64,000 nt of DNA, taken from contig JAGQKV010000019.1 of assembly GCA_020429915.1 (NCBI GenBank), positions 85,727 through 149,726 on the forward strand. The letters run 5' to 3'. This document shows positions 9,220 to 60,604 of this stretch, in pieces. A model generated the notes under the pieces. The model saw only the letters and a program-made list of their open reading frames with translations, was not told where the DNA came from and searched no databases. Source of the stretch: Candidatus Omnitrophota bacterium (GTDB lineage: Bacteria; Omnitrophota; Gorgyraeia; Zapsychrales; Zapsychraceae). How positions within the stretch are numbered: the stretch's first letter is position 1; every line of letters begins with the position of its first letter. A program made the position numbers and the translations under genes.

Positions 9220-9226
9220 CAGTATT

Positions 9227-11581
9227 ATGAGCGAGATGGGAACCAAAATTCTGGAAAAGGCGAACATCTATGTCGGCCTGTTCGTGATCGGCGCGTTGTT
9301 CGGTCTTTTGATCTTTGTCTCGGGGGTTGAGATCAAGGACCTGGATCTGTGGTTGCACCTGGGCGTGGGCAAGTACATCATGCTGAGCGGATCGGTGCCG
9401 CAGGAGGATCTGTTTAATGTCGTGACCACCGGCCACTTCTGGAATAACCATGAGTGGCTGTTTCAACTTTTGGTGTGGAATGTCTTTTCGCAGTGGGGGG
9501 AGCAGGGCCTGTCGCAGATGCAGACGGTGGTGGTGACCTTCACGATGATGCTGCTGTTTTTTATCGGGTACAGCAAGGAGCGACAGTTCATCATGATCCT
9601 GTCGCTGATCTTCGTCTACTTCGTGTATATCTCGCGGTTTACCATCCGGCCGGACCTGTTCAGTCTGACTTTTTTTACGCTCTACATCTTTATTATGTCG
9701 CTGCACATCGACAAGCGTTGGTCGCTGCCGGCGCTGGTCATCGTGCAGGTCCTGTGGACGAATTTTCACGGGTTCTTTTTCTTCGGGCCGCTGTTTGTCC
9801 TGATCGGCCTGTTTTCGGAATGGATGAAACGTCACGTCAAGCTGCCGTGGGAGTGGAACCAGTCCGGCCGGTTGACCGACGAGGAGTACGGCCGGTTAAA
9901 GATCGCGCTGGTGCTGGTGTCGGTGGCGTGCCTGGCCAATCCCCAGGGCGTGGAAGGCGCGCTCTACCCGATCAAGGTATTCTTTTCGCTATCCGGCGGA
10001 GACAGCATCTTCTTCGATTATATCCAGGAACTCAAACCGCCCGTGGAATGGGGCGATTTCTTCGGCGGGGGAAATTACGCGTACTACAAGCTGATGATCA
10101 TCGTCTCGGCGCTCACTTTTTTCCTCAACCGGCGCCGGCTGGATATCAGCGCGTTGATTCTGTGGATTATCTTTCTGCTGTTTTCCCTGAAGGCGATTCG
10201 CAATATCTCGTTCTTCGCCTTTACCGCCTACCTGTGCATCATCTCCAACTGCTACTATCTGGCAGCCGCCGATGTAATCCCGCTGCGGTTCAACAGCAAA
10301 CGCTTCGTTTACATCACCGGCATTTTTTGCAAGATCCTGCTGCTCGGTTTTATCGCGGAGAATTACAACGTGATGGCCGAACGCGGGTATTACGACTTCG
10401 ACAAGTACCAACGCAAAAGCGAGTTCGGAGGCATCGCCAAGCGGACCTACCCGTCCGGGGTGGCGGACTTCATCATCGAGAACGGGATCAAGGCCAATAT
10501 CTTTAATGACTTCAATTCGGGCGCCTATTTGATCGGCCGCACCTTTCCCAATATCAAGGTGTTTATGGACGGCCGCACCGAACTGTACGGCGGAGAATTC
10601 TTCCGGCAGTATCTCAAGATTTGGGAGCAAGGCAATCCCGAGACCTTCGAGGCCATGGTCGCGAAATATAACCTGACCGGTGCCTTTCTTAATTCCTCCC
10701 GCGAGGATATTCCCAAGGAGATCATCAGATATCTCGATCGGCAGAAGGAATGGGTCCCGGTGTATTTTAATTCGGACGGGGTCTTCTTTTTGAAAGATGT
10801 CCCGGAACACCGCGCCATCATCGAGCGCTACGCGGTGGACTTCGAGAACTGGCAGCCGCCGTATACCGATTTGCTTAGGATGGGGATCGCCAAGGCCGAA
10901 CCTTATGAGCACAATTACCGGGCCTTCACGCTGGAAAGCATGGACTACGATGAAGCCGCGCTGCGCGAGGCCAAAGAGGCCCTGCGTATCAAGCCGAACT
11001 ATGCGGACCCGCTGAAACTGATCGGTAAGGTTTTTGCCAAACGCAAACAGTTCCGCTCGGCCTTTGAGGCGTTCCGGCACGCCTGCCTGTATGATCCCGG
11101 CAACAAAAAGCTGCGATACAATCTGGCGCTGTCGTATCTCGATATGTCGGAGTACGAGGGCGCAATTGCGGCGTACCGGGATATTCACGCGGCGTGGCCG
11201 ACCGATCCCAAGGCGGTTTTCTTTCTGTCCAAGGCCTATGCCTTTAACCGGCAGTATGACGAATCTTTGAAGATGTTCCAGGAGGCCGTAAAGATGGCCC
11301 CGGCCAGCGCGGGCGACGCGGTCAACATTGCCGATGTGATCTTCGCAGACGGCAAGTACGATACGGCCATTGAGATGTACCGGACGGCGCTGGATATCAA
11401 TGATAAATTACCCGCGGTCCATCGCAAAGTCGGCGAGGCCTATCGGGCGCTGGATCAGCCGGAACTGGCCGAAAAGCACCTGAAGCGGGCAGCCGAATTA
11501 AAACCTCCGGAAGACGAGGCCGCGGAAGACGCGGATGATTCTCCAGCGCCTGCTCCCGCTGTCGTGAACAGCGCTGAATAA
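9227..11581 (+). CDS. Large polytopic membrane protein with a C-terminal TPR array. Paralog 2 of the tandem pair, same putative GT-C-like family.
   Basis: 784 aa. Asp-rich loop VEIKDLDLWLHL. Same motif set as 7084-9219. Longer TPR region plus an acidic/Pro-Ala tail. Confidence 0.8.
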   Translation: MSEMGTKILEKANIYVGLFVIGALFGLLIFVSGVEIKDLDLWLHLGVGKYIMLSGSVPQEDLFNVVTTGHFWNNHEWLFQLLVWNVFSQWGEQGLSQMQTVVVTFTMMLLFFIGYSKERQFIMILSLIFVYFVYISRFTIRPDLFSLTFFTLYIFIMSLHIDKRWSLPALVIVQVLWTNFHGFFFFGPLFVLIGLFSEWMKRHVKLPWEWNQSGRLTDEEYGRLKIALVLVSVACLANPQGVEGALYPIKVFFSLSGGDSIFFDYIQELKPPVEWGDFFGGGNYAYYKLMIIVSALTFFLNRRRLDISALILWIIFLLFSLKAIRNISFFAFTAYLCIISNCYYLAAADVIPLRFNSKRFVYITGIFCKILLLGFIAENYNVMAERGYYDFDKYQRKSEFGGIAKRTYPSGVADFIIENGIKANIFNDFNSGAYLIGRTFPNIKVFMDGRTELYGGEFFRQYLKIWEQGNPETFEAMVAKYNLTGAFLNSSREDIPKEIIRYLDRQKEWVPVYFNSDGVFFLKDVPEHRAIIERYAVDFENWQPPYTDLLRMGIAKAEPYEHNYRAFTLESMDYDEAALREAKEALRIKPNYADPLKLIGKVFAKRKQFRSAFEAFRHACLYDPGNKKLRYNLALSYLDMSEYEGAIAAYRDIHAAWPTDPKAVFFLSKAYAFNRQYDESLKMFQEAVKMAPASAGDAVNIADVIFADGKYDTAIEMYRTALDINDKLPAVHRKVGEAYRALDQPELAEKHLKRAAELKPPEDEAAEDADDSPAPAPAVVNSAE

Positions 11582-38715: not shown

Positions 38716-38737
38716 AACGAGCCTGTACCACCCAAGA

Positions 38738-38772
38738 ACAGCGGAAGGGACTATCTCTTCCGCTGTTTTTTT
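38738..38772 (+). terminator. Rho-independent terminator.
   Basis: 10-bp stem ACAGCGGAAG/CTTCCGCTGT, 9-nt loop, then a T7 run. Confidence 0.75.
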
Positions 38773-42351: not shown

Positions 42352-42478
42352 TTCCCCTTGTTTCCGCCTGGCCGGGGCTCCGGTCAGGCGGAAAATATCT
42401 TATTCCCCGGTAGCATCCCGTCGAGCCTGTGTTAGAATAGGGAAGAAATCATTCGCCTATCTGCCATACCGCACGCCC

Positions 42479-44287
42479 ATGGACAATTACAACTATGGAA
42501 TCATAGGGAACTGTTCCAGTGCCGCGCTGGTATCGACCGACTGCAGCATCGACTGGTTGTGCCTGCCGAATTTCGATTCTCCCTCGCTGTTTGCCCGCAT
42601 CCTCGACCAAGCCGACGGCGGGCATTTCAAGATTACGGGATACGAACAGCATGACAGCCACCAGGAATATCTGCGGCTGACCCCGATCCTGCGGACGGTT
42701 GTCCATACCGCGCACGGTTCCTACCAAGTCAACGATTACATGCCACGCTACCGGGATGCCCGCGGCGAGTACCAGTGCCCGTCCGAGGTCCACCGGATGA
42801 TCCGCGTCCTTTCCGGTAATCCCAAAATCCACATTGATTTTGCACCCCGTCCCAACTATGCCCTCGGCGCGCCGGAATTCCGACCCACGTCCGACTATAT
42901 CAAAATCACGTCCACCAAAGGGCCCTACAACAGTTACTATCTCTACAGTAATCTCGATTTCGACAAGATCCTCAGCGGCGAGGAGATCGAACCGGAACCG
43001 GTCAGCTATTTCGTGCTGTCCTATCATGAAAAGCTGGAACAAATCAACTGCGACCGGATTTACCTGGCCTATCAGCGGACCAAATCCTACTGGCTGGAGT
43101 GGATGCAGCGTTCGCGCTATACCGGACGTTTTGCGGAGGAGTTTCAACGTTCTTCCATTACCCTGAAATTGCTGATGTACCAGCGTACGGGAGCCGTGAT
43201 CGCCGCACCAACGACCTCGCTCCCCGAGATTATCGGGCAGGAGCGCAATTGGGACTATCGCTTTTGCTGGGTGCGAGACGCGGCGATGATCGTCGATACT
43301 TACGTGCGTATCGGTCATATCCAGACGGCCGACGGATTTATCAATTTTCTGCTCAACCGTATGCAGCTCAAACATGAGGACATCGGTGTGATGTACGGGA
43401 TCAACGGGGAGGAGAAGCTTGACGAGGTCATCCTGGACCACCTGCCCGGTTACAAAGACTCCAAGCCGGTCCGTATCGGCAACGCGGCCTATCTGCAGAA
43501 GCAGAATGATCTGTACGGAGAGCTTATCGAGACGATCTATACATACTTTTTCATCAACCGGCGGGCCAGTTTTCAGGTCAATGAGGAGATTTGGACCATG
43601 GTCCGTTCGCTGGTCAACCGGGTCCGGGACTGCTGGCGGGAGAAGGACAGCGGTATTTGGGAGCGCCGGGAGGCCATGCAGCACTACACGCATTCCAAAC
43701 TGATGGCCTGGGTGGCCATGGACCGCGCCTGCAAAATCGCCCGGTTTATCCGCAAACCCGAGTATGTCAACGGCTGGGCCCAGCTGGCCGAGGACATCAA
43801 AGTTGATATTTTGAAGAATGCGTGGAACGAAGACCTCAAATGTTTTACAATGTACTACGGTTCGGAGTTATATGACGCGTCCAACCTGCTGATGCTGCAT
43901 TACGGGTTTCTCAGCCCGGACGATCCTCGGATGATCTCCACGGTCGAGGAACACTACAAGCATCTGGTGAAGAACGGATTTACATTCCGCTACACGTCCG
44001 ATGATGAATTCGGCACGCCGGAAAACGCCTTTATTGTCTGCTCCTTCTGGATGATCAACGCCCTGTACCTGATCGGCCGGGAGGACGAGGCCCGACAAAT
44101 GTTTGATCACGTGCGCTCCTGCGCCAATCATCTCGGTCTGTTTTCCGAGGACGTCGACATCACCACCAAGAGATTGACCGGAAATTTTCCGCAGGGTTAT
44201 TCCCATCTGGCCTATATTCAGACCGCCCTATTACTGGAGACGGATTACAATTGGAGCGACGCGTGCGCTCTGAAACCGAATAACTAA
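42479..44287 (+). CDS. Glycoside hydrolase family 15 (glucoamylase/glucodextranase/trehalase-like).
   Basis: 602 aa. N-terminal YGIIGNCSSAALVSTDCSIDWLCLPNFDSP is the GH15-related N-domain. C-terminal (alpha/alpha)6 catalytic region with the WEE/R motif (IWERRE). Confidence 0.85.
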   Translation: MDNYNYGIIGNCSSAALVSTDCSIDWLCLPNFDSPSLFARILDQADGGHFKITGYEQHDSHQEYLRLTPILRTVVHTAHGSYQVNDYMPRYRDARGEYQCPSEVHRMIRVLSGNPKIHIDFAPRPNYALGAPEFRPTSDYIKITSTKGPYNSYYLYSNLDFDKILSGEEIEPEPVSYFVLSYHEKLEQINCDRIYLAYQRTKSYWLEWMQRSRYTGRFAEEFQRSSITLKLLMYQRTGAVIAAPTTSLPEIIGQERNWDYRFCWVRDAAMIVDTYVRIGHIQTADGFINFLLNRMQLKHEDIGVMYGINGEEKLDEVILDHLPGYKDSKPVRIGNAAYLQKQNDLYGELIETIYTYFFINRRASFQVNEEIWTMVRSLVNRVRDCWREKDSGIWERREAMQHYTHSKLMAWVAMDRACKIARFIRKPEYVNGWAQLAEDIKVDILKNAWNEDLKCFTMYYGSELYDASNLLMLHYGFLSPDDPRMISTVEEHYKHLVKNGFTFRYTSDDEFGTPENAFIVCSFWMINALYLIGREDEARQMFDHVRSCANHLGLFSEDVDITTKRLTGNFPQGYSHLAYIQTALLLETDYNWSDACALKPNN

Positions 44288-44312
44288 ATTAACAATTGGT
44301 AAGGAGGAAGAC

Positions 44313-44831
44313 GTGAGAGTACACTCATTACTCGGCATCTTGGCTGTTTCGCTATTCCTGATCGGATGTTCCACCCATACGCAAAGCCCCACGGCGGTGA
44401 ATCGCTTGCAGATCCAGGTCGCCCAGATGGAACGGCAGCTGGAAAACCGGGACAAGGCCATCGGTGATCTGCAGGCCCAGGTTCACGATATGTCTTCCGA
44501 GCTGAACGAGATCAAGACCTACTCGCTGTACGAACCGATCGAGGAGTACGACTACCGGAAAACCGCGCGCGCACCGTTGATTGAAGAGGATGAAGACGAA
44601 CCCGCGGTCCGTGAGACCGAACAGGACGAACGGATTATTCGGGTCAAGGCGACCGAACGGGAAGTTCAGCAGGCCTTAAAGAATGCCGGCTTCTATAACG
44701 GCAAGATCGACGGCAAGATCGGCGCCCAGTCCCGGAAGGCCATTCAAGACTTTCAGCTGGACCACAAACTGAAGGCCGACGGTATAGTCGGCCGCCGGAC
44801 CTGGACCGAACTCAAGACCTACCTTGATTGA
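44313..44831 (+). CDS. Lipoprotein with a C-terminal peptidoglycan-binding (PG_binding_1-like) domain.
   Basis: Lipobox LIGC. Coiled-coil middle. C-terminus LKNAGFYNGKIDGKIGAQSRKAIQDFQ...DGIVGRRTW is a typical PG-binding repeat. Confidence 0.6.
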   Translation: MRVHSLLGILAVSLFLIGCSTHTQSPTAVNRLQIQVAQMERQLENRDKAIGDLQAQVHDMSSELNEIKTYSLYEPIEEYDYRKTARAPLIEEDEDEPAVRETEQDERIIRVKATEREVQQALKNAGFYNGKIDGKIGAQSRKAIQDFQLDHKLKADGIVGRRTWTELKTYLD

Positions 44832-45660
44832 GAACGACCTCGCTGACCGCCGGCCCGCGGTGAGCGTCTTCGGCTGCGGCTGGATGGGATTGCCCGTTGC
44901 CTGCCGGCTGCGCAGCGAAGGTTATCCTGTGAAAGGATCAACCACGGCGGCCGCCAAGATTCCCGTTCTCCGGGAGGCCGGGATACAGCCGTATCTGCTG
45001 TGTTGTGCGCCCGAACTCAGTGGAGAAGATGCGTCGGAATTCTTTGCCTCCGAAATTCTCTTTTTAACGCTGCCGTTTCGACGTAACATGCCCGACCCCG
45101 AAGAGTACCGGCGCCAAATTGCCGCGGTGATCGACCAGGCCCGCACCGGATCGGTGCGATGGATTATTTTTACCAGTTCCACATCCGTATACCCGCCCGC
45201 CGGCACCGAGGTGACGGAGGATGACATCATCGTCCCGCAGAACGCGCGGCAACGCGTACTGCGCGACGTCGAGCAGGACATACTCGGCGCTGCGCCGATT
45301 TCGGGAACGGTGCTTCGTTTCGGCGGATTGTATGGCGGTGATCGTGAGCTGGGCCGGTTTCTCGGGGGTACGGCCGCCGTCCAGCGGGACGGTGAAAGCC
45401 GCGTAAACCTGATCCATCTGGACGATTGTGTGGGCATCGTGAGCGCGGTGATTGCCGCCGGTGCGACGGGGGAGATCTTCAACGCCGTCGGCGACGCCCA
45501 TCCGACCCGGCGTGAATTGTATACCCGCAAGGCCCGGGAATGCGGATTACCCGCTCCCGATTTTGCCGGCTCACCGGGGGGGCCGGATAAAATCGTGTCC
45601 AACCGCAAACTGAAGACGGTTCTGTCTTATTCCTTCATTCATCCCGATCCGCTGGAGTGA
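44824..45660 (+). CDS. NAD(P)-binding Rossmann-fold protein (SDR/epimerase-like).
   Basis: N-terminal VFGCGWMGLPVA glycine-rich NAD(P)-binding motif. 278 aa. Overlaps the upstream gene by 8 nt. Confidence 0.55.
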   Translation: MIENDLADRRPAVSVFGCGWMGLPVACRLRSEGYPVKGSTTAAAKIPVLREAGIQPYLLCCAPELSGEDASEFFASEILFLTLPFRRNMPDPEEYRRQIAAVIDQARTGSVRWIIFTSSTSVYPPAGTEVTEDDIIVPQNARQRVLRDVEQDILGAAPISGTVLRFGGLYGGDRELGRFLGGTAAVQRDGESRVNLIHLDDCVGIVSAVIAAGATGEIFNAVGDAHPTRRELYTRKARECGLPAPDFAGSPGGPDKIVSNRKLKTVLSYSFIHPDPLE

Positions 45661-45661
45661 C

Positions 45662-47485
45662 GTGATGAAGTTTTCTTCTCTGAGTAAAGCCTGGTTGGCG
45701 ACGCCGGCCTTCGTGCTGGCCGCTTTTCTCCTTTACGGAAACACCCTCTCCAGCGCCTTTCATTTCGACGATTTCATCTTTATTGTGCAGAATCCGGAAC
45801 TGACCGATCCCTTTGATATCCGCACGATCTGGGCAGAAGGCAGCGCTCCGACGAGATTTATCGCTTACTGGACCTTCGCCTGGAACTACTATTTTCATCA
45901 GTACGACGTGACCGGCTATCATGTCGTCAATATTTTGATTCACGCGCTGAACGCGATGTTGGTTTATTGGGTCACCGGGTTGCTGGCGACCCGTCTGGCC
46001 GAATCAAACCGGATGCCCGCCAGCCGTGTGCGGGTCGCCGCTGTCATCGCGGCCTTGATTTTCCTGTGTCATCCGCTGCAAACCCAGGCGGTCACGTACT
46101 TGTGCCAACGTTTTGCCTCGTTGGCGACGCTATTCTATGTGCTCGCCGTCGGGTGTTATGTGCGGGGGCGCATGACCGCGCGACCGGTATGGTGGGCCGC
46201 CGCGGGCGTTGCGGCCTTGGCCGGGATGTTCACCAAGCAGATCGTCATGACCCTGCCTGTGACGGTGCTCCTAACGGAATGGTTTTTCTTTCGCGAGGCG
46301 AGGATCACTCCGCGCGCGGTTTGGCGTCACTGGAGATTAATGGCGATGGGAGGGGCGGTATTCCTGCTAATCCCGGCGGTCTATTCTTTCAATGTGCAAT
46401 CCATCCTGCTGCGGGAGTATGAATCCTTGTCCCACCGCGGCGATACACTTGATTTGTGGACCTATTTCCTGACCCAGTCGCGGGTTATCTGGACTTACAT
46501 CCGGTTGCTCGTGTTCCCGGTCGGGCAAAACCTATTGTATGATTTTTCCGCCTCTACCGTGTGGTGGGAGCCGAAGGTCATCGCGGGTTTCAGCGGCATT
46601 ATCGCGCTGACGGCGGCGGCCCTGGTGTGGCGCCGGCGCTATCCGTTGGCTGCCTTCGGTGTCTTGTGGTTTTTTACGACGCTGCTGGTGGAGTCGAGCA
46701 TTATTCCCATCCGGCACGTGATCTTTGAGCACCGCCTGTATCTGCCGATGTTCGGGGTTGCGCTGGTCGCGGCTCAAGTCTTTACCGGACGGCGGCTGCC
46801 GGTCAAAGCGGGGATCGCTTTGGTCACCGCGGCCGTCGTAACGCTTTCCGTGCTGACGATCCGCCGCAATGCCGTGTGGCGCGACGGCATTACCTTATGG
46901 TCGGATGTCCTCGAGAAGTCTCCCGGCCTGATCCGGCCTTACACCCATTTGGCCACCGCCTATTTGAACCAGGGGAATTATGAGCGGGCACTGGAAATCT
47001 ATTCGGCGGCCATCGCGACCGATCCCGAACGGGCCGAGTCCTACAACAACCGCGGAAATGTGTACACGGTCCTCAAACAATATGACCGTGCCCTCGACGA
47101 CTACCGGCAGGCGCTGGTGTTGGACCCGACACTGGAAAAGACGTACAATAACGTCGGGATCATCTACAATAAACGAAAACAATTTGCCGAGGCCCTCGAC
47201 CACTATAACCGGGCGATCGCGCTCAATCCGTCCAATGCCGGCGCGTATTTTAACCGGGCCAATGTGTATCTGCAGCGGAATGAACTCGACAAGGCCTTTG
47301 CCGATTATACGCGCAGTATCGAGAGTAACCCGTTTCAGAAAAAAGCGTATTACTACCGTTCGCAGATTTACGCGACGGGTGGAGATTTTGAGAACGCGTT
47401 GCAGGATGTCCTCGAGGCCCAGTCACTGGGTGTGAAGGTGGATAAGCGGTATGTCGAAGATTTAAGGAAGAAGGTGGCGCCATGA
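45662..47485 (+). CDS. TMTC/PMT-like polytopic membrane protein (DUF1736-type) with C-terminal TPR repeats. Putative protein O-glycosyl(mannosyl)transferase. Paralog 1.
   Basis: 607 aa. Loop-1 motif NTLSSAFHFDDFIFIVQNPEL. HPLQTQAVTYLCQRFASLATLFYV, RLLVFPVGQNLLYDF, IPIRHVIFEHRLYLP. C-terminal TPRs (YNNRGNVY...). Confidence 0.8.
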   Translation: MMKFSSLSKAWLATPAFVLAAFLLYGNTLSSAFHFDDFIFIVQNPELTDPFDIRTIWAEGSAPTRFIAYWTFAWNYYFHQYDVTGYHVVNILIHALNAMLVYWVTGLLATRLAESNRMPASRVRVAAVIAALIFLCHPLQTQAVTYLCQRFASLATLFYVLAVGCYVRGRMTARPVWWAAAGVAALAGMFTKQIVMTLPVTVLLTEWFFFREARITPRAVWRHWRLMAMGGAVFLLIPAVYSFNVQSILLREYESLSHRGDTLDLWTYFLTQSRVIWTYIRLLVFPVGQNLLYDFSASTVWWEPKVIAGFSGIIALTAAALVWRRRYPLAAFGVLWFFTTLLVESSIIPIRHVIFEHRLYLPMFGVALVAAQVFTGRRLPVKAGIALVTAAVVTLSVLTIRRNAVWRDGITLWSDVLEKSPGLIRPYTHLATAYLNQGNYERALEIYSAAIATDPERAESYNNRGNVYTVLKQYDRALDDYRQALVLDPTLEKTYNNVGIIYNKRKQFAEALDHYNRAIALNPSNAGAYFNRANVYLQRNELDKAFADYTRSIESNPFQKKAYYYRSQIYATGGDFENALQDVLEAQSLGVKVDKRYVEDLRKKVAP

Positions 47486-49731
47486 ATTTAGCCAAGTCCG
47501 CGGCCGTCCGGCTGAGCGCCGCGGTGATTATTATTGTGACCGTCGGACTGCTGGCCTACGCGAACAACTACCGCAACAGCTGGCACTTCGACGACCAAAG
47601 CTATATCGTGCAGAATCCGACCATCCGCTCGCTGGACAACTTCAGGGGGATGTGGGATCGGTTGAGCGCCCCGGGGCGGGTTGTCGTTCTGTACAGCTTC
47701 GCTCTCAATTACCATTTCGGCGGGACCGATGTTTTCGGATACCATGTCGTTAACAATGCGATTCATGTTACCGCCGCGGTGTTCGTCTTCGGCATTGTCT
47801 GGATGCTGATGGCCACACCCCGGATGGCGGGATCACCTCCGGCCCGTGGCCGTTGGTTGGTGGCCCTGTTCACAGCATTGATCTTTGTCAGTCATCCGTT
47901 GCAGACGCAGGCGGTTACTTATATTTGTCAACGTTTCGCGTCGTTGGCGACCCTGTTTTATGTTATGAGCGTGTTTTGGTATCTGTGCGGCCGGTTACGC
48001 CGTAGGGGGGCGTCCGTCTATTTTGTCCTGGCTGCGGTGTCCGCGGTCCTGGGGATGTTCAGCAAGCAGATCGTGATTACGTTACCGGTTGTAATCCTGA
48101 TTATCGAATGGCTTTTTTTCGGGGCGTTTACACGGCACGGGGGAAGGCTCCGTATTCCCTGGAAAGTCATCGTCCCCTTGGCCGTGCTGCTTATGATTAT
48201 TCCCGCGCTGTATTCATTTCGGGCCGGGGCCATTCTCTCGATCAAGCACAAATCCTCGGGATCATACCGCGGTGAACTCATCAACCGGCAATCGTATTCA
48301 TTGACGCAATTGCGCGTTATTCCGACGTACATACGCCTGCTCGTGTTTCCCGTGGGACAAAACCTCTTGTATGATTTCAAGACATCCAAGAGTCTGACGG
48401 AACCCAAGACGCTGGCCGGATTAATACTGATCCTGAGTTTGATCGCGCTCGCCCTGGCGCTGCGCCGACGGAACCCGCTGGCGGCCTTCGGAATCTTTTG
48501 GTTTTTTGTGACACTTTCGGTTGAATCCACTGTCATACCGATCCGGCACGTCATTTTTGAGCACCGGGTGTATTTGCCGAGCGTCGGATTTTGTTTGTTG
48601 GCTGCCTCGCTGGTCTATCAGTGGTCCCGGCAACCCCGCCGGGCAGCCGCGGTATTGTCTGTGATTGTTTTGGCCCTGACCGTGCTGACGCACGAACGCA
48701 ACAAGGTGTGGCGGGATGAACTGACGTTGTGGGAAGACGTCAAAGAAAAGTCGCCGCACAAGATGCGCCCGTATCTGAATACCGGCATCGCGCATTCGGC
48801 GAACGGGGAGTTTGAAAAGGCTATTGCCGATTTTCAGATCGCGCTGGAAAAGGTCCCCAACAGCATCATGGCGCTCAATAATCTCGGGATCACCTACACC
48901 CGGCAGCATCGTTATGAAGAGGCCCTCGCCGCGTTTGACCGCGCGTTGGCCATCAGCGACAAATGGGAGGAGGTGTGGAACAATCGCGGCGATGTCTTTC
49001 GGCACCGCGGGGAATTTGCCGCGGCCTTGGCCGACTATGACCGGGCCTTGTCCATCAATCCGCAGATGTACCAAACATTAAGCAATCGCGGGGTGGTTCT
49101 GGCACACTTGGGCCGCGACGAAGAGTCCTTGGCTGATTTTCAACGGTCGCTGGAGATCGCGCCGGGTTTTATTGAGGCCCACCAAAATCGTGGGAATTTG
49201 CTGGGCCGGATGCGCCGCTACGAAGAGGCCATTGCAGATTTCACGGTGGTCATTCGCAGCAATCCACGCATTCCGCAAATCTATAACAACCGGGGCAACG
49301 CCTACCGGCGGCTTAAGCAATATGACCTGGCACTGGCCGACTACAACCGGGCGATTGACCTCGACCCGGATTTTGCCGAGGCCTACAATAACCGGGGAGT
49401 GGTGTATCGTGAACAGGGTCGGGCAGACCTTGCCCTCAAGGACTACGATAAGGCCCTGTCACTCGATCCCCGCTACGTCACCGCATACAATAACCGCGGA
49501 AATCTTCATAAGGTGGAAGGGCGCTACGGAGCTGCCCTTGAGGACTTCAACACCGCGTTGAAGATCGAACCGGAAAACCGGTACGTGTATTTTAACCGTG
49601 CCAAGACGCATTTAAGCCGGCATGATTTTCAGGCCGCCCTGCGCGATGCTGAAATATCCCGGCATCTCGGCTACAGTCAGGCGGCGCCGTTTATCAACCG
49701 TATCAAGCAGGTGATGCATGCCCGGCCTTGA
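47482..49731 (+). CDS. TMTC/PMT-like membrane-TPR protein, paralog 2.
   Basis: 749 aa. WHFDDQSYIVQNP and the same conserved blocks as 45662-47485. 8-9 C-terminal TPR units. ATGA overlap with paralog 1. Confidence 0.8.
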   Translation: MNLAKSAAVRLSAAVIIIVTVGLLAYANNYRNSWHFDDQSYIVQNPTIRSLDNFRGMWDRLSAPGRVVVLYSFALNYHFGGTDVFGYHVVNNAIHVTAAVFVFGIVWMLMATPRMAGSPPARGRWLVALFTALIFVSHPLQTQAVTYICQRFASLATLFYVMSVFWYLCGRLRRRGASVYFVLAAVSAVLGMFSKQIVITLPVVILIIEWLFFGAFTRHGGRLRIPWKVIVPLAVLLMIIPALYSFRAGAILSIKHKSSGSYRGELINRQSYSLTQLRVIPTYIRLLVFPVGQNLLYDFKTSKSLTEPKTLAGLILILSLIALALALRRRNPLAAFGIFWFFVTLSVESTVIPIRHVIFEHRVYLPSVGFCLLAASLVYQWSRQPRRAAAVLSVIVLALTVLTHERNKVWRDELTLWEDVKEKSPHKMRPYLNTGIAHSANGEFEKAIADFQIALEKVPNSIMALNNLGITYTRQHRYEEALAAFDRALAISDKWEEVWNNRGDVFRHRGEFAAALADYDRALSINPQMYQTLSNRGVVLAHLGRDEESLADFQRSLEIAPGFIEAHQNRGNLLGRMRRYEEAIADFTVVIRSNPRIPQIYNNRGNAYRRLKQYDLALADYNRAIDLDPDFAEAYNNRGVVYREQGRADLALKDYDKALSLDPRYVTAYNNRGNLHKVEGRYGAALEDFNTALKIEPENRYVYFNRAKTHLSRHDFQAALRDAEISRHLGYSQAAPFINRIKQVMHARP

Positions 49732-50674
49732 TTCCGGACAACGTTATATTTTGACCGTGACCTTGAACACAACCGTCGACACGATGCTCCGCTACCGGCG
49801 CGTTGGAGGAAGTTGCCGTTTCGAGAAGGAAACCCGTGTGGCCGGCGGAAAGGGGCTCAATGTGTCACGAGCCCTGCGCCGGCTGGGCCGGGCGAGTCTG
49901 GCTGCCGGAATCGTCGGCGGTTGTACCGGGCGGGACATCGAACAGCTGTTACGCCGGGAAGGTCTGCGGTACCGGTTTTATCGGAACGACGCCGAGAGCC
50001 GACAGAATCTCATTCTGTGTCTGCCGGAGTTGTCCCCGGCCAACCGGGTCTTCCGGCAGACGCCGTCGATTTCGGGCCATGGATACAGGGAGTTCCGCGG
50101 ACTCTACCGGGACGCCCTGCATCGGGCCGACATGGCGGTGCTCAGCGGTAGTGTGCTGGACGGACTTCCGCCGGCGGTATACGCGGATTTGATCCGCGAT
50201 GCGCGCCGACGAAAGATTCCGGTGCTGCTGGATGCCAGCGGCACCCCCCTGCGTGAGGGTTTGAGGGCCCGGCCGACGTTCATCAAGCCGAACCTAACCG
50301 AAATTCAACACGCCACCGGTATCCGCGTCCGGACGTTAAACGACGCGGTGAAGGCTGCCGCATCGTTGCGGCGGATGGATCTTCCCAATATTTATCTCAG
50401 CCTCGGCGAGCGCGGGGCGATCGGTTGCAATCATAACGAATTGTGGTATGCTAAGGCGCCGAAGGTCGCCGTCCGCAATACAGTCGGCTGCGGGGACGCG
50501 TTCGTCGCCGCCGTTTGCGCCGCTCACTTGGACAAGCTGTCTTTGTCTGTTGCGCTTTCGTTGGCCGTGGCGGCGGGAACCGTCAGCGCGACCAATTTTG
50601 TTCCGGGTTTGGTCGATCCGACTGCCGTACGCGATATGGCCGCCCGCATTAAATTGAGGAAACTCCCTTTATAG
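49718..50674 (+). CDS. PfkB-family carbohydrate kinase (1-phosphofructokinase/tagatose-6-P kinase-like).
   Basis: 318 aa. GGKGLNVSRAL N-motif and C-terminal TVGCGDAFVAA (PfkB signature 2). Overlaps the upstream gene by 14 nt. Confidence 0.75.
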   Translation: MPGLDSGQRYILTVTLNTTVDTMLRYRRVGGSCRFEKETRVAGGKGLNVSRALRRLGRASLAAGIVGGCTGRDIEQLLRREGLRYRFYRNDAESRQNLILCLPELSPANRVFRQTPSISGHGYREFRGLYRDALHRADMAVLSGSVLDGLPPAVYADLIRDARRRKIPVLLDASGTPLREGLRARPTFIKPNLTEIQHATGIRVRTLNDAVKAAASLRRMDLPNIYLSLGERGAIGCNHNELWYAKAPKVAVRNTVGCGDAFVAAVCAAHLDKLSLSVALSLAVAAGTVSATNFVPGLVDPTAVRDMAARIKLRKLPL

Positions 50675-50686
50675 GAAAGGACCGGC

Positions 50687-51325
50687 ATGGAAACGTTGGA
50701 AGCACACGCCTCCGAATCCACTCACTATATCGACGATACCCTGAGGGCCGAGATCATTGCCCTGTCCAAAGACTTTAAACGTTCCTGGATCAGTCTGGGC
50801 CGGCATTTGTACGCGGTTTGGCAGGACAAACTCTACCGCAACTGGGGTTTTGAGAAGTTCGAGAACTATATCGAAGGGGAAGTGGGACTCAAAAAGAATC
50901 TGGCCACGAAGCTGCTGCGGTCGTACCTCTTTCTCGAGCAGGACGAACCCCAATACCTGGACGCCGAGTTTACCAACGAGCGGGACGCCATGAAAGTGCC
51001 CGGGTATGAAGAAATTAACTTTCTGCGCTTAGCCAAGCACAAGAAGGAAGTGAAGAGAGACGACTACGCCCGGATGAAGAAGGATGTGTTCGAGAAGGGC
51101 AAGAACGCGACGGTGATGCGCAAGGATCTGACCGCGTTGATGAAGGAACGCAAATACGTCGATCCGGATCAGGAGCGCGAAGACCGTCATCAGACAGCCA
51201 TCCGCCGGGTCGTCCATTCCCTGAAGAACTTCCAGAAGGATATGGAAGCCCTGCAGCTCATTCCCGCCGCCATTATGGACGACACCAAGAAATTGCTCGA
51301 CCGCCTGGAAGCCGAGCTGGATTAA
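50687..51325 (+). CDS. Hypothetical protein (first gene of the ATP-grasp cluster).
   Basis: 212 aa, charged and helical. No domain recognised. 2-nt gap to the next gene. Confidence 0.5.
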   Translation: METLEAHASESTHYIDDTLRAEIIALSKDFKRSWISLGRHLYAVWQDKLYRNWGFEKFENYIEGEVGLKKNLATKLLRSYLFLEQDEPQYLDAEFTNERDAMKVPGYEEINFLRLAKHKKEVKRDDYARMKKDVFEKGKNATVMRKDLTALMKERKYVDPDQEREDRHQTAIRRVVHSLKNFQKDMEALQLIPAAIMDDTKKLLDRLEAELD

Positions 51326-51327
51326 GG

Positions 51328-52359
51328 ATGCCGCTAAAATCTCCCGTTAACCTCGATTCGATCAGCGATGAGGCGCTGCTCGGGACCCGGGTCTGCGATC
51401 TTCCTGTTACGGTATCCGGGACCTGGCTGGCGGACTGCGTGGAGCAACTGTACCGGGAGTTGGCGGACAACGGTATTTTGTTCCGGCCAAAATGCTTCCT
51501 TGCCGACGAGTGGCTCACACCGGAAAATGAAACCTGTATCGGCATTCCTTTTTACCTGGCACATCCGCGATTGACCGCCTTGGAAAAACATTTTATGGAA
51601 CGTGCGGAAGGCGAGGAGCGGACCGAGTGCATGAAGCTGTTGCGACATGAGGCCGGTCACGCATTGTACTACGCCTACCGCATCCACGCCCGCCGGAAGT
51701 GGCAGCGTTTGTTCGGTTCGGCCAAGACCGAGTACGGTGAGACCTACCGCTACCGGCCCTACAGCCGCAATTTTGTCAGACATCTCGAGGGCCATTACGC
51801 CCAATACCATCCTGAAGAAGATTTTGTGGAAACGTTCGCCGTCTGGCTCACGCCCGGACTGGACTGGCGCAGCCGTTACCGCGGCTGGAAGGCGCTGGAC
51901 AAACTCAATTACGTGGATCGCCTGATGAATACCTTGCGCGGTCGTCCGCCGCGGCACACCAGCGCCCGTCAATATTGGCGGATCTCTACGCTGCGTTGCA
52001 CCCTGCGGCATTATTACAAACGCAAACGCCGTGCCATGGCCGAGGAATTTCCCGACTTTCATGATTCATTTCTGAAAAAGCGTTTTCTTTCGGGGACGGA
52101 AAACGGCACCGGATCGCAGCCCGCCGCCGCCATTTTGCGTAAATACCGGAAAGAGCTGGTGGACAACATCGCCCTGATTTCCGGAGAACCCAAACACTTG
52201 ATCCGGGAGTTGCTCACGGCCATTCAGAAACGCAGCCGTCAATTGGATCTCTCCACCGTTGACAATGAATCCGCCGTACTGCTGAGCATCTCCGCTTACA
52301 TTACGTCACTCGCCAAGAATTATCAGTACACCGGTCGCTACCGGGGAAAGAAGGCATAA
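51328..52359 (+). CDS. HExxH-motif protein (putative zinc-dependent hydrolase or regulatory domain).
   Basis: 343 aa. LLRHEAGHALYYAY contains HExxH, with a downstream acidic block HPEEDFVETFAVWL. Confidence 0.5.
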   Translation: MPLKSPVNLDSISDEALLGTRVCDLPVTVSGTWLADCVEQLYRELADNGILFRPKCFLADEWLTPENETCIGIPFYLAHPRLTALEKHFMERAEGEERTECMKLLRHEAGHALYYAYRIHARRKWQRLFGSAKTEYGETYRYRPYSRNFVRHLEGHYAQYHPEEDFVETFAVWLTPGLDWRSRYRGWKALDKLNYVDRLMNTLRGRPPRHTSARQYWRISTLRCTLRHYYKRKRRAMAEEFPDFHDSFLKKRFLSGTENGTGSQPAAAILRKYRKELVDNIALISGEPKHLIRELLTAIQKRSRQLDLSTVDNESAVLLSISAYITSLAKNYQYTGRYRGKKA

Positions 52360-52365
52360 CAGGCT

Positions 52366-53373
52366 ATGGGTAGACGAACAAAGGTCTTGATGTTGTTCAG
52401 CAGTCCGTATAACCGTCCGCGGGGATACGATTACGCCGAGGAATTCGCGGACCCCGATGACATGTATACCGAGAATGATGTCCATCGCGCCCTGCTGGAG
52501 AATAACTACGATGTGCGCCTGTTGGGAATTCACAATGATCTGGGAACTTTTTTCGAAGAGATCCGGGAGGATCGACCGGATGTCATCTTTAACCTGATGG
52601 AAGTCTTCGACGGAAAATCGCATTTGGAAAAGAATATCGCCGCCCTGTTGGAAATGGTCGGCATTCCATTTACGGGTTCTTCGTCCGACACGCTGCACCT
52701 GTGCAATAACAAGGAGCTGAACCGCAAGCTCTTTCGTTTTCACCGGATCAAGATTCCATACTTTCAAGCCTTTCACCGTCATCACAAGGTTTGGTTGCCC
52801 AGGAAAATGAGTCTGCCCTGTATCGTTAAACCATTGGCCGAAGAGGCCTCGCGGGGGATCTCCCAGGCCTCGATCGTCGACAGCGAGGAGGCGTTTGTGG
52901 ACCGGGTCCGCTTTATTCATGAGAAGATGCAGCAGGACGCAATCGGGGAGGAGTTTATCGACGGGCGCGAGCTCTATGTTACGGTCATGGGACACAAGAA
53001 GCTGACGGTTTTTCCGCCGCGTGAGATGCGTTTTGGTGAACTGCCGGAGGACGCACGCATCGCGACTTACAAAGCCAAGTGGGACGATCAGTACCGGGCC
53101 AAGTGGGGGATTAAGAGTGTGCATGTCGGCAAGCTTCCCGCGGGGGCCGAGCAGGAGATTGCCGAGGTCTGCAAACGCGCCTACCGCGCGTTGAACGCGC
53201 GTAGCTACCTGCGGTTCGATATTCGGCTTAACAGCGCCGGTCAGGTGTACATCATCGAACCCAATGCCAACCCGTGTATCGCCCGTGTTGACGAAGTGGC
53301 GCTCAGCGCGGAGAAGGCCGGGGTAGCGTTTTCCCGGTTGATCAGGAAGATCGTGCAGCTTGCCGTTAAATAA
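52366..53373 (+). CDS. ATP-grasp ligase of the D-alanine--D-alanine ligase-like family.
   Basis: 335 aa. Pre-ATP-grasp domain, PCIVKPLAEEASRGI, ELYVTVMG, and C-terminal FDIRL...YIIEPNANP Mg/ATP-binding motifs. Confidence 0.75.
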   Translation: MGRRTKVLMLFSSPYNRPRGYDYAEEFADPDDMYTENDVHRALLENNYDVRLLGIHNDLGTFFEEIREDRPDVIFNLMEVFDGKSHLEKNIAALLEMVGIPFTGSSSDTLHLCNNKELNRKLFRFHRIKIPYFQAFHRHHKVWLPRKMSLPCIVKPLAEEASRGISQASIVDSEEAFVDRVRFIHEKMQQDAIGEEFIDGRELYVTVMGHKKLTVFPPREMRFGELPEDARIATYKAKWDDQYRAKWGIKSVHVGKLPAGAEQEIAEVCKRAYRALNARSYLRFDIRLNSAGQVYIIEPNANPCIARVDEVALSAEKAGVAFSRLIRKIVQLAVK

Positions 53374-57814: not shown

Positions 57815-59563
57815 TTGGAGCCTATGAACGCCAAACTCAGAAATATCGGTTCCGGTCTGCTGATTTTCCTGCTGGGTTGTCTGGTGTATGCCAACGGTTT
57901 GAACGTGCATGGGTTCGAATTCCGTGACGATGAGGTGTTCTATAAAAAGAGTACCCAGGAAATGGTGGCGACCGGCGAGATCCTTTCGCCGAAGTACTTC
58001 GGCGAAGATCGGTTCCAGAAGCCCATACTCTACTACTGGTTCATCCTCGCCGCCTACCGGGTATTCGGAGTGAGCTGGTTTGCCGCTCGCATCACTTCGT
58101 GTCTGTTTGCCGCCGGTGCCTTGGTCCTGACCTGGTTAATTGCGAAATCCCTGTTTGACCGCCGCACGGGATACGTCAGCGTCTTCATTCTGATGACGAT
58201 GCCGCTGTTCTTTCGTCATGCCAAGAATGCCGTCCCGGACATGGCGCTCAATTTCTTTATCGTCTTGGCCCTGTATCTGTTTATCCGTTTCGTTGAAGAC
58301 GGGCACCGCTGGCGTTTTGCCGCCGGTTTCTTCCTGGCCTGCGGCGCCGGATTTATGGTCAAGGGTTTTGCCGCGTTGCTGTTTCCCTACCTGACCGTGA
58401 TCCTGTACGCGGTCTGGGAACGGGACTGGAGCATCCTGCGGGATATGCGCTTCTTCCGCGGCACTCTGCTGTTTCTGGCCGTGGTTCTGCCGTGGTTTAT
58501 TTTTATGACCGTTGTTCACGGAAGCGAATACATCGAGTACATGTGGTTCCGGGAGACCACGGACCGCTTGTTGAAGGTGGAGGAAGGCCATTTCGTGCTA
58601 CGCAAGATCGGAGACTTTCTGCGTCACTTCGGATTTTATGTCGCGGTCCTCTTCCAGCAGTATGCCCCGTGGTGTCTCGTTTCCGGCGCCGCGCTGGTGG
58701 CTGCATTTGTCGGTTGCCGGCGGGGAGGGGACCACCGGGAGCCCTACCGGTTTTTGATGTTGTGGATTGCGACCGTAATCGTCTTTTTCTCCTTCATGTA
58801 TTTTACGATCAGCCACTACATGCTGGTCTTATCCACACCGCTGGCCATAGCTACCGCCGCGTTCGTGCTGCGTCCCCTGCCCGACACACGCTGGCTGGCT
58901 GTGCTGATGACATGGTTACGCCGGCATCTGCTTTTTCTGGCTTATTTTGTGTTGCTTGCCGTCTACGTATTCGTGCTGCTGTTTTTCGGCGGTGCTCCGC
59001 TCGTCCTGGCGGGGGCGGTCGGCGCCCTGGGTGTGACGATCGGTATTCTAGGAATTCGCACTCCCGGTCCGGTTGCGCCGGTGGCCCTGCTGGCGGCCCT
59101 GCTGGCGGCGGTGATGTTCCAAACCCCGTATCTTTCACAGCTGGGCCTGACGACCCACACTGCCTGGCGAAAATTTGCCGGGGAAATTCAGCGGAGGGGC
59201 CATCAACCTTATACGGTCGGAGTGGCCAGCCATGATCTCCATGAAAAAGAGCTGCAGATCTATTTTCCGAGCCAGCGCATCGGCAAATATGCCAACGACA
59301 ATGAGGAGTACACGGTCTATATGTTGCGCCAGCTCTTCGGCAATAAGCAAAGAGTCTATTGTCTGATGACGGAAAAAGACTATAATAAGTACTTAAAAGA
59401 CACCCGGGAACCGGTGGAGATCATTCGGCGGGATTATATGCTGCGAAAGAGGCTGAATATTGACGGCGGATTCTTCATGGCCCTCTTGCGGTTGGATCGC
59501 CGGACGATCTTTCACTATTTCATGGAAAATGTGGTGTTGATCAAGAGGGAGCAACGTGTCTGA
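57815..59563 (+). CDS. ArnT/PMT-family (GT-C fold, GT39/GT83-like) polyprenyl-phosphate-sugar-dependent glycosyltransferase.
   Basis: 582 aa with about 12 TM segments. Loop-1 motif FEFRDDEVFY. KPILYYW, RHAKNAVPDMALNFF. Confidence 0.8.
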   Translation: MEPMNAKLRNIGSGLLIFLLGCLVYANGLNVHGFEFRDDEVFYKKSTQEMVATGEILSPKYFGEDRFQKPILYYWFILAAYRVFGVSWFAARITSCLFAAGALVLTWLIAKSLFDRRTGYVSVFILMTMPLFFRHAKNAVPDMALNFFIVLALYLFIRFVEDGHRWRFAAGFFLACGAGFMVKGFAALLFPYLTVILYAVWERDWSILRDMRFFRGTLLFLAVVLPWFIFMTVVHGSEYIEYMWFRETTDRLLKVEEGHFVLRKIGDFLRHFGFYVAVLFQQYAPWCLVSGAALVAAFVGCRRGGDHREPYRFLMLWIATVIVFFSFMYFTISHYMLVLSTPLAIATAAFVLRPLPDTRWLAVLMTWLRRHLLFLAYFVLLAVYVFVLLFFGGAPLVLAGAVGALGVTIGILGIRTPGPVAPVALLAALLAAVMFQTPYLSQLGLTTHTAWRKFAGEIQRRGHQPYTVGVASHDLHEKELQIYFPSQRIGKYANDNEEYTVYMLRQLFGNKQRVYCLMTEKDYNKYLKDTREPVEIIRRDYMLRKRLNIDGGFFMALLRLDRRTIFHYFMENVVLIKREQRV

Positions 59564-60281
59564 TCCGGAATCCCGGGAAAATCGCGTCAAAAAGGTCATT
59601 TGTTCGGTCATCTTCCCGGTCTATAATGAGGAAGAGTCTCTGGAGCCGTTGCTGTCCGAAGTGCTCACCGTGATGTCCGGTCTGAACAAGCCTTACGAGA
59701 TTATCTTTGTGGACGACTCCTCATCGGATGACTCCCCGAGAATTTTAAGTCGGTTCCGGGACGAGCTTCCGGAGATTATCCGCATCGTCACCTTGCCGGA
59801 GCGCAGCGGTCAGACCAAGGCGTTGCGGGTTGGCCTGGATAAGGCCCGCGGTGAAGTTGCCGTGACGCTGGACGCGGATCTGCAGAATGATCCTGCGGAT
59901 ATCCCGGCGTTGTTACAGAAGCTGGAAGAGGGATTTGACTGTGTTTGCGGTTGGCGGAGAGACCGTCAGGATACGCTTGTGAAGGCGGCGTTATCCAAGC
60001 TGGGAAATATCCTGCAACGGATATTTACCCGGCTGACCATTCATGACGTCTCTTGTACCCTGCGGGCCTACCGGCAAGAGTGTATCGCGCGCATTCCGCT
60101 CAACTGGGAGGGGCAGCATCGGTTCATACCCTTGTGCCTTTCGCTCCAGGGATTTAAGGTGGGGGAGATCGAAAGTCACCACCGCGCGCGCCGGTTCGGT
60201 GCGACCAAATACAGTCACAAAAGGATTTTTCGGGTCGTGACCGATTTTTTCAGAATACTTAAAGCGGGAGGCAAGGCGTGA
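59556..60281 (+). CDS. GT2-family polyprenyl-phosphate glycosyltransferase (ArnC/DPM1-like).
   Basis: CSVIFPVYNEEESL, IFVDDSSSD (DxD), LDADLQND. 241 aa. Overlaps the upstream GT-C gene. Confidence 0.85.
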   Translation: MSDPESRENRVKKVICSVIFPVYNEEESLEPLLSEVLTVMSGLNKPYEIIFVDDSSSDDSPRILSRFRDELPEIIRIVTLPERSGQTKALRVGLDKARGEVAVTLDADLQNDPADIPALLQKLEEGFDCVCGWRRDRQDTLVKAALSKLGNILQRIFTRLTIHDVSCTLRAYRQECIARIPLNWEGQHRFIPLCLSLQGFKVGEIESHHRARRFGATKYSHKRIFRVVTDFFRILKAGGKA

Positions 60282-60604
60282 CGGGCGAGATGTTTTTGGG
60301 AATGGAAATGAAGTACTGGTTGATTATCGGCTTTATCGGGCAACTCACCTTCGGGGCGCGGTTTATCGTGCAATGGATATGTTCGGAATTCCGCCAGGAA
60401 AGCCACATTCCGGTGGCCTTTTGGTATCTGAGCATCGTGGGCGGGTTGATTCTGCTGATGTACGCGATTTCGCGACAGGATCCGGTTTTCATCATGGGCC
60501 AGTCGATGGGTGTATTGATTTATGCCCGTAATTTACGGCTGATTTACAAGAAAAAACGGCGCCGGACCACCTTTAAACAATCGGTGGAGCTGTCCGGCAC
60601 TTGA
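60278..60604 (+). CDS. Small membrane protein of the lipid-A-biosynthesis N-terminal (LAB_N) domain family.
   Basis: 108 aa with 3 TM segments. YWLIIGFIGQLTFGARFIVQW. Commonly partnered with ArnC-like GT2 enzymes. Start may be the internal Met. Confidence 0.55.
   Translation: MTGEMFLGMEMKYWLIIGFIGQLTFGARFIVQWICSEFRQESHIPVAFWYLSIVGGLILLMYAISRQDPVFIMGQSMGVLIYARNLRLIYKKKRRRTTFKQSVELSGT

Follow-up and report, generated by a model that had tools for sequence, protein, structure and literature searches.

Two adjacent genes in a 64,000-nucleotide stretch of a Candidatus Omnitrophota genome (contig JAGQKV010000019.1; we call the whole stretch the window and give positions in its coordinates) very probably encode bacterial GT-C glycosyltransferases. 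We are confident that these genes, A (45662-47485, + strand) and B (47482-49731, + strand), belong by family and fold with the TMTC proteins of CAZy family GT105 and that their products are built like the pilin glycosyltransferase TfpW. They are followed by K (49718-50674, + strand), which encodes a PfkB-family kinase. The overall explanation that we favor, and which we consider reasonably probable, is that A and B are paralogous inner-membrane GT-C transferases that glycosylate envelope proteins, and that K stands outside this chemistry.

Homology of A and B to the TMTC proteins

The original prediction described two translationally coupled genes for proteins of 607 and 749 amino acids, with shared motifs and C-terminal arrays of tetratricopeptide repeats (TPR), and all of these features are present. 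A has 607 amino acids if it is read from the GTG at 45662. The ATG at 45665 is the likelier start (606 amino acids) because GGAG lies about 7 nucleotides (nt) upstream and because a 92%-identical homolog (P0001) has 606 amino acids and begins with MKFSS. B is a paralog of A with 749 amino acids (44% identity over 579 amino acids, E = 1e-145, which is far above chance). The A/B junction reads ...GCG CCA TGA, with the ATG of B at 47482, so this is a genuine ATGA overlap that indicates translational coupling. Purine runs that resemble Shine-Dalgarno sequences precede the start codons of both B and K.

Both proteins carry an acidic motif in their first extracytoplasmic loop: FHFDD in A (residues 33-37, nt 45758-45772, with D36 and D37 at nt 45767-45772) and WHFDD in B (residues 34-38, nt 47581-47595). 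They also share the motifs HPLQTQAVTY(L/I)CQRFASLATLFYV, RLLVFPVGQNLLYDF, and IPIRHVIFEHR. In A, a catalytic domain with 11 transmembrane (TM) helices (residues 1-404) is followed by a TPR domain (residues 409-605; 46886-47476, + strand), which lies downstream of the 11th TM helix and has 12 helices or about 6 repeats. B has a matching 11-TM domain and about 9-10 TPR repeats. The TPR_1 model of Pfam matches the C-terminal halves of both A (E = 1.9e-37) and B (E = 2.6e-75, in eight stretches). In the loops of A, lysine and arginine make up 12 of 37 residues that are assigned to the cytoplasm and 9 of 141 that are assigned to the periplasm. By the positive-inside rule, this predicts an inside N-terminus and a periplasmic location for both the TPR domain and the FHFDD loop (residues 31-82); a cytoplasmic FHFDD motif, which the original prediction named as evidence against itself, is thus not what is predicted. 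This first periplasmic loop (EL1; 45752-45907, + strand) includes the invariant arginine R65 as well as FHFDD, and it is probably the loop that carries out catalysis and binds the phosphate of the donor.

TMTC1-4 are protein O-mannosyltransferases of the endoplasmic reticulum that modify cadherins. We compared the family of A and B to ten TMTC N-terminal domains (human TMTC1-4; zebrafish 1, 3, and 4; Drosophila 1 and 4; and Xenopus 2), which we rebuilt from a published alignment (Additional file 1 of PMC7801869). A profile built from 22 membrane domains of the bacterial family (profile A2) recovered all ten TMTC domains at full length, with E values from 2e-35 to 6e-24 (hmmsearch, Z = 1e6). 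In a profile-profile comparison with hhalign, A2 matched the TMTC alignment with a probability of 99.95% and E = 5.1e-38 across 382 columns (15-410 against 5-430), which bears out the proposal that A and B are TMTC-like proteins with TPR arrays. In the other direction, a hidden Markov model (HMM) of the TMTC domains matched both A (1.5e-13) and B (4.2e-17). It did not match two other sets of GT-C proteins from the window, namely a PMT_2-type protein (57815-59563) and another pair of proteins with TM and TPR domains (7084-11581, hereafter the first pair). As a negative control, a profile of the first pair, which also combines a GT-C domain with TPR, gave E = 0.49 against the TMTC alignment and 0.071 against A2. 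This failure implies that the match between A2 and the TMTCs is specific and is not an effect of hydrophobic composition.

The homology covers the whole 11-TM domain, and the overall architecture is the same as well. TMTCs have 11 TM helices, a cytoplasmic N-terminus, and a C-terminal TPR array outside the cytoplasm (PMC7801869, PMC6801728), and A and B share this N-in/C-out topology and the extracytoplasmic array. One difference is that the lipid carrier of A and B would have to be a bacterial polyprenol instead of dolichol.

Structure prediction agrees with this assignment. An AlphaFold model of A (alignment depth 45 sequences; predicted local distance difference test score 90.8, predicted template modeling score 0.87) has 11 TM helices and then 12 TPR helices. 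The solved structures that lie near this model in a fold search of the PDB are Pmt4 (18.7, with 329 residues aligned) and Pmt2 (18.0), followed by ALG12 (17.9), STT3B (17.4), and AglB (16.0). As modeled, then, A has the GT-C fold, and the protein O-mannosyltransferases are its nearest solved structures. Two such fold searches returned no solved TMTC structure (one of them, with Foldseek, returned TPR proteins only), and neither A nor profile A2 had a real match in sequence searches of the PDB.

The protein O-mannosyltransferases of family GT39 (PMT/POMT) share the acidic pair in loop 1 and the 11 TM helices with A and B. In contrast to them, A and B have no Pfam match to PMT or PMT_2 and no MIR domain, and TPR repeats take the place of the β-trefoil that is inserted in a PMT loop. 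ArnT (GT83) and the PMT_2-type protein of the window are like A and B in their GT-C fold and probably in their lipid-linked donor. The profile match between this type and A/B is weak, though, and is limited to the first 200 residues (hhalign probability 57%, E = 1e-4, with FDD aligned on RDD). ArnT also differs in that it has 13 TM helices, lacks a TPR domain, and modifies lipid A, and the PMT_2-type protein of the window belongs to another family.

We then considered which residues are conserved, using 45 family sequences from many phyla (including B) and taking the corresponding TMTC columns from the hhalign alignment. Sixteen residues are invariant: D36, R65, H87, N90, H94, H137, P138, Q149, R150, R170, K192, P286, Q289, E356, H357, and Y360. 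Another three are nearly so (D37 in 43 of 45 sequences, T197 in 44, and R358 in 43). B retains all of the invariant residues, so both paralogs look catalytically competent. The conserved positions lie in the periplasmic loops: loop 1 has FxFDD and R65, loop 2 HPxQTQAV, loop 3 K192, loop 4 PxGQN..Y, and loop 5 EHRxY.

Many of these correspond to TMTC motifs. The FVFDD of the TMTCs aligns with the FxFDD of the family, so the alignment of the loop-1 aspartates that had been proposed as a check comes out as expected for A and B. Similarly, (Y/F)HxxNxxxH in the TMTCs corresponds to GYHxxNxxxH in the family (with H87, N90, and H94), HPxHTEAV corresponds to HPxQTQAV (with H137 and P138), and K192 is the lysine of KE(T/Q)xxT; the first two of these motifs are kept in A and B. 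At the level of sequence patterns, A and B have FxFDD..I..N, HPxxTxAV, an LLxxP stretch in loop 4, an E...Y.P..G stretch in loop 5, and a terminal RN in common with the TMTCs.

Several observations weigh against our explanation. The first concerns the DUF1736 label (PF08409) of the original prediction, which did not survive. PF08409, PMT, and PMT_2 do not match A or B even at E ≤ 10, and a scan of Pfam and NCBIfam with the first 410 residues of both proteins matched no family at all. Among 22 diverse relatives, none matches PF08409 at E ≤ 1, and PMT_2 has two weak matches (the best at 0.005). Taken literally, this is the outcome that the original prediction had said would speak against it. We think that PF08409 is a poor criterion because it is too narrow. 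In human TMTC3, our positive control, the N-terminal domain matches PF08409 (1.1e-31) only across residues 256-327 and has no other significant Pfam match. Pfam sees the TMTCs only via this 75-residue loop between TM7 and TM8, so the lack of a match means only that this loop has diverged.

Signature residues also differ in four TMTC motifs. In SHKSYRP, whose histidine and lysine were proposed to bind the donor phosphate, only the arginine is kept (R65); the histidine and lysine positions vary across the family and correspond to a gap, A, or P in A. At the glutamate of KE(T/Q)xxT, which is predicted to bind metal in the TMTCs, the family has E in 26 sequences and Q in 19, and both A and B have Q193. 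In place of DW, the family has D (33) or L (11) and then Y (42 of 45), and A and B have L292-Y293. Finally, ERxxY (AERVLY) corresponds to E356-H357-R358-x-Y360, with the invariant H357 at the position of the arginine. We considered whether A and B, with Q193 and L292, have lost a metal site through both positions together, and rejected this, as the two positions vary independently among the relatives; this implies that acidic residues are not essential there in the bacterial branch. Two further points on the same side are that the window contains no ORF (open reading frame) with a prepilin N-terminus and that we found no characterized bacterial TMTC-like enzyme besides TfpW in the literature.

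Predicted acceptors and donors

Indications of function come from the neighbors of distant family members. For 51 distant loci, we clustered the ORFs that lie within 6 kb of the family gene. In 11 of these loci, which come from several phyla, one of the neighbors encodes a GT2 glycosyltransferase with C-terminal TM helices; GT2 enzymes of this type make polyprenyl-phosphate-sugars. Using a GT2 protein from the window (59556-60281) as the query, we found homologs near genes that encode TM and TPR domains (hereafter TM-TPR genes) in 8 distant loci, within about 10 kb. Type IV pilin genes are near the family member in 9 of the 51 loci, and in 7 of them the pilin gene is just upstream on the same strand (L012, 9419-9823; L019, 8558-9001; L032, 7045-8224; L036, 9280-9852; L038, 345-800; L040, 9286-9825; and L041, 9160-9594). 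These upstream pilins carry the GFTLIEL prepilin N-terminus, and the loci are from Deltaproteobacteria, Gammaproteobacteria, Halobeggiatoa, Halothiobacillus, and Magnetococcales. The recurrent pilin and GT2 neighbors support the use of a lipid-linked donor and a protein acceptor in this family. We infer the same for A and B, whose window has no pilin gene.

The arrangement of these seven loci is like that of pilA-tfpW. TfpW is a GT-C arabinosyltransferase (or oligosaccharyltransferase) that modifies the group IV type IV pilin. The protein from group IV Pseudomonas aeruginosa has 646 amino acids, a cytoplasmic N-terminus, 11 TM helices, and a periplasmic TPR domain; its loop-1 DDX motif is needed for pilin glycosylation, and it has Y-x6-P in loop 4 (bioRxiv 10.1101/2020.04.19.049825). 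Judging from this description of its architecture, TfpW is the same as A in its 11 TM helices, loop-1 DDX, and periplasmic TPR, and A has Y279-x6-P286. The surroundings of A and B are different: the window has no pilin gene, and no genes for D-Araf biosynthesis were seen nearby.

We therefore propose the following mechanism, in which the assignment of a protein acceptor has about an even chance of being correct. Each of A and B would take a sugar from a polyprenyl-phosphate-sugar, presumably linked to undecaprenyl phosphate and made by a GT2 enzyme. D36 and D37 would act on the acceptor, and R65, K192, and H357/R358 would hold the phosphate of the donor. The sugar would go to hydroxyl groups of envelope proteins that the TPR domain captures, as TMTC1-4 do with cadherins and TfpW does with the type IV pilin. 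As the paralogs have TPR arrays of unequal length (about 6 versus about 9-10 repeats), they would most likely serve different sets of acceptors.

The strongest alternative, which we consider somewhat unlikely, is that A and B are indeed GT-C transferases and that their acceptor is a lipid or a polysaccharide, with the TPR domain as a periplasmic scaffold. Candidate acceptors would be lipid A or the core of lipopolysaccharide (as for ArnT), an exopolysaccharide, or a polymer linked to peptidoglycan. The neighbors of A and B in the window include envelope-related genes (for a PG_binding_1 protein, a GH15 enzyme, and a Ddl-like ATP-grasp enzyme), which fits this alternative and adds to the evidence against a protein acceptor. 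So does the commonest neighbor in the distant loci, a DD-carboxypeptidase-like gene, which is found in 15 of 51, mostly in one Burkholderiales clade (two of the recurrent neighbors in our clustering are specific to Burkholderiales clades). ArnT is also the best HHpred template reported for the TMTCs (PMC7801869), and TPR domains occur in polysaccharide-export proteins as well, with weak matches to PgaA and BcsC. On the other hand, the closest sequence relatives of known function (the TMTCs) and the architectural twin (TfpW) both act on proteins, and in seven loci a family member directly follows a pilin gene.

A second alternative concerns how the two proteins work together. It is unlikely that A and B function only as an obligate heterodimer, as Pmt1-Pmt2 or POMT1-POMT2 do. 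The ATGA coupling would favor equimolar synthesis, and the divergent genome that contains L069, another Omnitrophota locus, retains both an A-type and a B-type gene at about 57% identity. PMTs are known to work as dimers (PMC7759382). However, the Omnitrophota locus L072 has a B-type gene alone. Furthermore, of 52 distant loci, 44 have a single copy, 8 have two or more, and one of these has six, a pattern that resembles diversification of acceptors, and all of the invariant residues of the catalytic loops are retained in both A and B. We prefer the view that each paralog is active on its own acceptors.

It is very improbable that A and B are catalytically dead TPR membrane scaffolds with a GT-C fold, like PIG-U: Q193 and L292 are non-acidic where models of the TMTCs predict metal binding, and PF08409 is unmatched, but sixteen polar or charged loop residues, including the aspartate of the DD motif, are invariant across 45 sequences from many phyla, and positions 193 and 292 show no joint loss.

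The kinase and the surrounding genes

K encodes a PfkB kinase of 318 amino acids (Pfam PfkB, E = 5.4e-41), which overlaps the end of B by 14 nt (49718-49731), as had been predicted. The original prediction went on to suggest that K provides a dedicated step of sugar activation, so that A, B, and K would form one functional module. We consider this highly improbable, and the model is largely refuted by synteny. In its favor are the 14-nt overlap itself, with the Shine-Dalgarno-like AGGTGA upstream of the start of K, and the conservation of the B-K overlap in Omnitrophota relatives with kinase identities to K that range from 76% to 50%. Indeed, B and K overlap in every Omnitrophota locus that has B, so a lineage-specific functional link is possible, and this counts against our own explanation.

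The evidence on the other side begins with the subfamily of K, which is the 1-phosphofructokinase/hexose-kinase group. K scores above the curated NCBIfam cut-off of TIGR03168 (249.5 bits versus 216.4, residues 11-313) and below that of the FruK equivalog TIGR03828 (233.1 bits versus 292). It thus groups with FruK, LacC, and PfkB in the broader family and scores too low to be assigned to FruK itself. Its best relatives in the PDB are the fructose-1-phosphate kinase 2abq (full length, E = 1.4e-36) and tagatose-6-phosphate kinases. The known members of this subfamily phosphorylate sugar phosphates. Enzymes of the 1-phosphofructokinase family make sugar bisphosphates for cleavage by aldolases, not glycosyl donors. 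The donors of GT-C enzymes are polyprenyl-phosphate-sugars made by GT2 enzymes, and it is GT2 enzymes that recur beside the family members.

We also examined the co-occurrence of K with TMTC-like genes, which had been suggested as a check. Within about 10 kb of TM-TPR genes, a homolog of K was found in none of 51 distant loci. (A metagenome scan for relatives of K yielded only three distant loci and was uninformative.) Using look-ups of the exact proteins of K homologs, we found that Omnitrophota kinases that are 76%, 68%, 50%, and 44% identical to K occupy the same conserved stretch, with the order PG_binding - SDR - (A) - B - K - 212 aa - 343 aa - Ddl-like, where SDR is an atypical short-chain dehydrogenase/reductase and aa is amino acids. 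L072 has only the B-type copy and is otherwise identical in gene order. In another Omnitrophota locus, L075, the kinase (39% identical) lies in the order PG_binding - K - 215 aa - Peptidase_Mx, without any TM-TPR or SDR gene. In other words, K travels with the genes downstream of it, and the SDR gene comes and goes with the glycosyltransferases.

The overlap of B and K also has a simpler reading. From 42479 to 53373 there is no terminator-like hairpin of comparable strength to those upstream. This puts K in the middle of a block of nine co-directional genes, and the overlap most likely reflects compact packing. Nearly all genes in the window are on the + strand, and the cumulative GC skew climbs steadily from 0 to 1.2. 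Both features fit a leading-strand stretch of a compact genome, in which short overlaps between unrelated genes would be favored. We conclude that K is probably co-transcribed with B and that it is most likely a neighbor of A and B and not their partner in glycosylation. K would act in central sugar-phosphate metabolism, as part of the same long operon and apart from the glycosylation chemistry.

Between 38 and 56 kb, the only terminator-like hairpins with long stems are at 38734-38770 (17 pairs) and 42361-42394 (15 pairs). These two flank the DsbD-AhpC genes and mark where the nine-gene block with A, B, and K is likely to start. A promoter scan was uninformative (15 sites versus 10.9 expected).

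The genes from K onward (49718-53373, + strand) encode the PfkB kinase, a charged soluble protein of 212 amino acids with no family match, a 343-amino-acid protein that resembles zinc peptidases (HEAGH, with a weak match to Peptidase_Mx), and the Ddl-like ATP-grasp enzyme. This stretch, possibly a functional module, is kept across Omnitrophota. In L075, which lacks the TM-TPR genes, the first three of its genes are still found (3970-6934, with the contig ending inside the third). In comparisons of L068 to L075 with the window (49718-52359), the kinase diverges faster than its neighbors: where it is 39-50% identical, the 212-aa and 343-aa proteins are still 51-73% identical and the Ddl-like enzyme about 73-75%.

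The gene that ends 1 nt before A is a more plausible partner for A and B than K is, because its presence in Omnitrophota goes along with that of the TM-TPR genes. This SDR gene (44824-45660, + strand) encodes a protein of 278 amino acids that resembles NAD-dependent epimerases; its relatives in the PDB are 3gpi and 3ius (E of about 3e-9), and its match to the Pfam Epimerase model is weak. It accompanies TM-TPR genes in L001, L068, L069, and L072, and both are missing in L075. It is thus a possible partner of A and B.

The window was predicted to encode five GT-C enzymes, and this count stands at the level of the fold. Besides A and B, these are the two members of the first pair and the PMT_2-type protein. 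The genes of the first pair (7084-9219 and 9227-11581) encode proteins that are 41% identical to each other and whose membrane part matches no Pfam model. We tested the first pair as members of the family of A and B and rejected them (hhalign E of 0.071 to 0.31); they form a separate GT-C family that is like STT3 and DPY19. The fifth gene (57815-59563, + strand) is of the PMT/PMT_2 (ArnT-like) type and matches both Pfam PMT_2 and PMT. It overlaps by 7 nt with the adjoining gene for the GT2 glycosyltransferase (59556-60281, + strand; Pfam Glycos_transf_2, E = 5.4e-33), and a small gene with a LAB_N domain comes next in relatives. The region 57815-60600 (+ strand) looks like a self-contained cassette that makes and uses a lipid-linked sugar. 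Its GT2 enzyme is not adjacent to A and B, and it may be a source of polyprenyl-phosphate-sugar for them too.

The remainder of the window is ordinary chromosome, with genes for an Opp transporter, SMC, DnaG, RpoD, aromatic amino acid synthesis, and LepA. The closest public relative is the Candidatus Omnitrophota metagenome-assembled genome HK-STAS-OMNI-4, with 93% identity and an unchanged order of genes between DsbD and LexA.

A large bacterial family

At E ≤ 1e-3, profile A2 matches 96,866 of 1.84 billion cluster representatives, and at E ≤ 1e-30 it matches 23,076 (the family size of about 97,000 counts clusters at 50% identity). The best 150 of the 96,866 matches are all close bacterial relatives. 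Family members are found in Omnitrophota, Nitrospirota, Desulfobacterota/Deltaproteobacteria, Myxococcales, Planctomycetota, Bacteroidota, Acidobacteriota, Gemmatimonadota, Burkholderiales, and several Gammaproteobacteria. The pair of A and B is an ordinary instance of this very large bacterial family. Tandem copies are common, so the tandem arrangement of A and B is typical and not special. In one contig from an uncultured bacterium, six paralogs lie head to tail on one strand (L003, 5054-17152).

Full-length prokaryotic homologs of the TMTCs were mentioned previously (PMC7801869). Pfam and NCBIfam both lack a model of the membrane domain, and for this reason nearly all family members are called "tetratricopeptide repeat protein" in public records. 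Genome annotation may in this way miss on the order of 10^5 probable glycosyltransferases, which profile A2 would recover.

The TMTCs are human disease genes, and the bacterial family is an accessible model for their catalytic domain. For example, the glutamate of KE, the aspartate of DW, and the histidine and lysine of SHKSYRP are dispensable across the wider family. The example of TfpW demonstrates that an enzyme built like A and B can glycosylate a protein. More tentatively, and with less than even confidence, we suggest that the family represents a widespread and unrecognized form of periplasmic protein O-glycosylation and the prokaryotic root of the animal TMTCs. TfpW would then be a special case, and A and B would act on envelope proteins other than pilins, with each enzyme choosing its clients by its own TPR array and with a sugar that may be shaped by the SDR protein.

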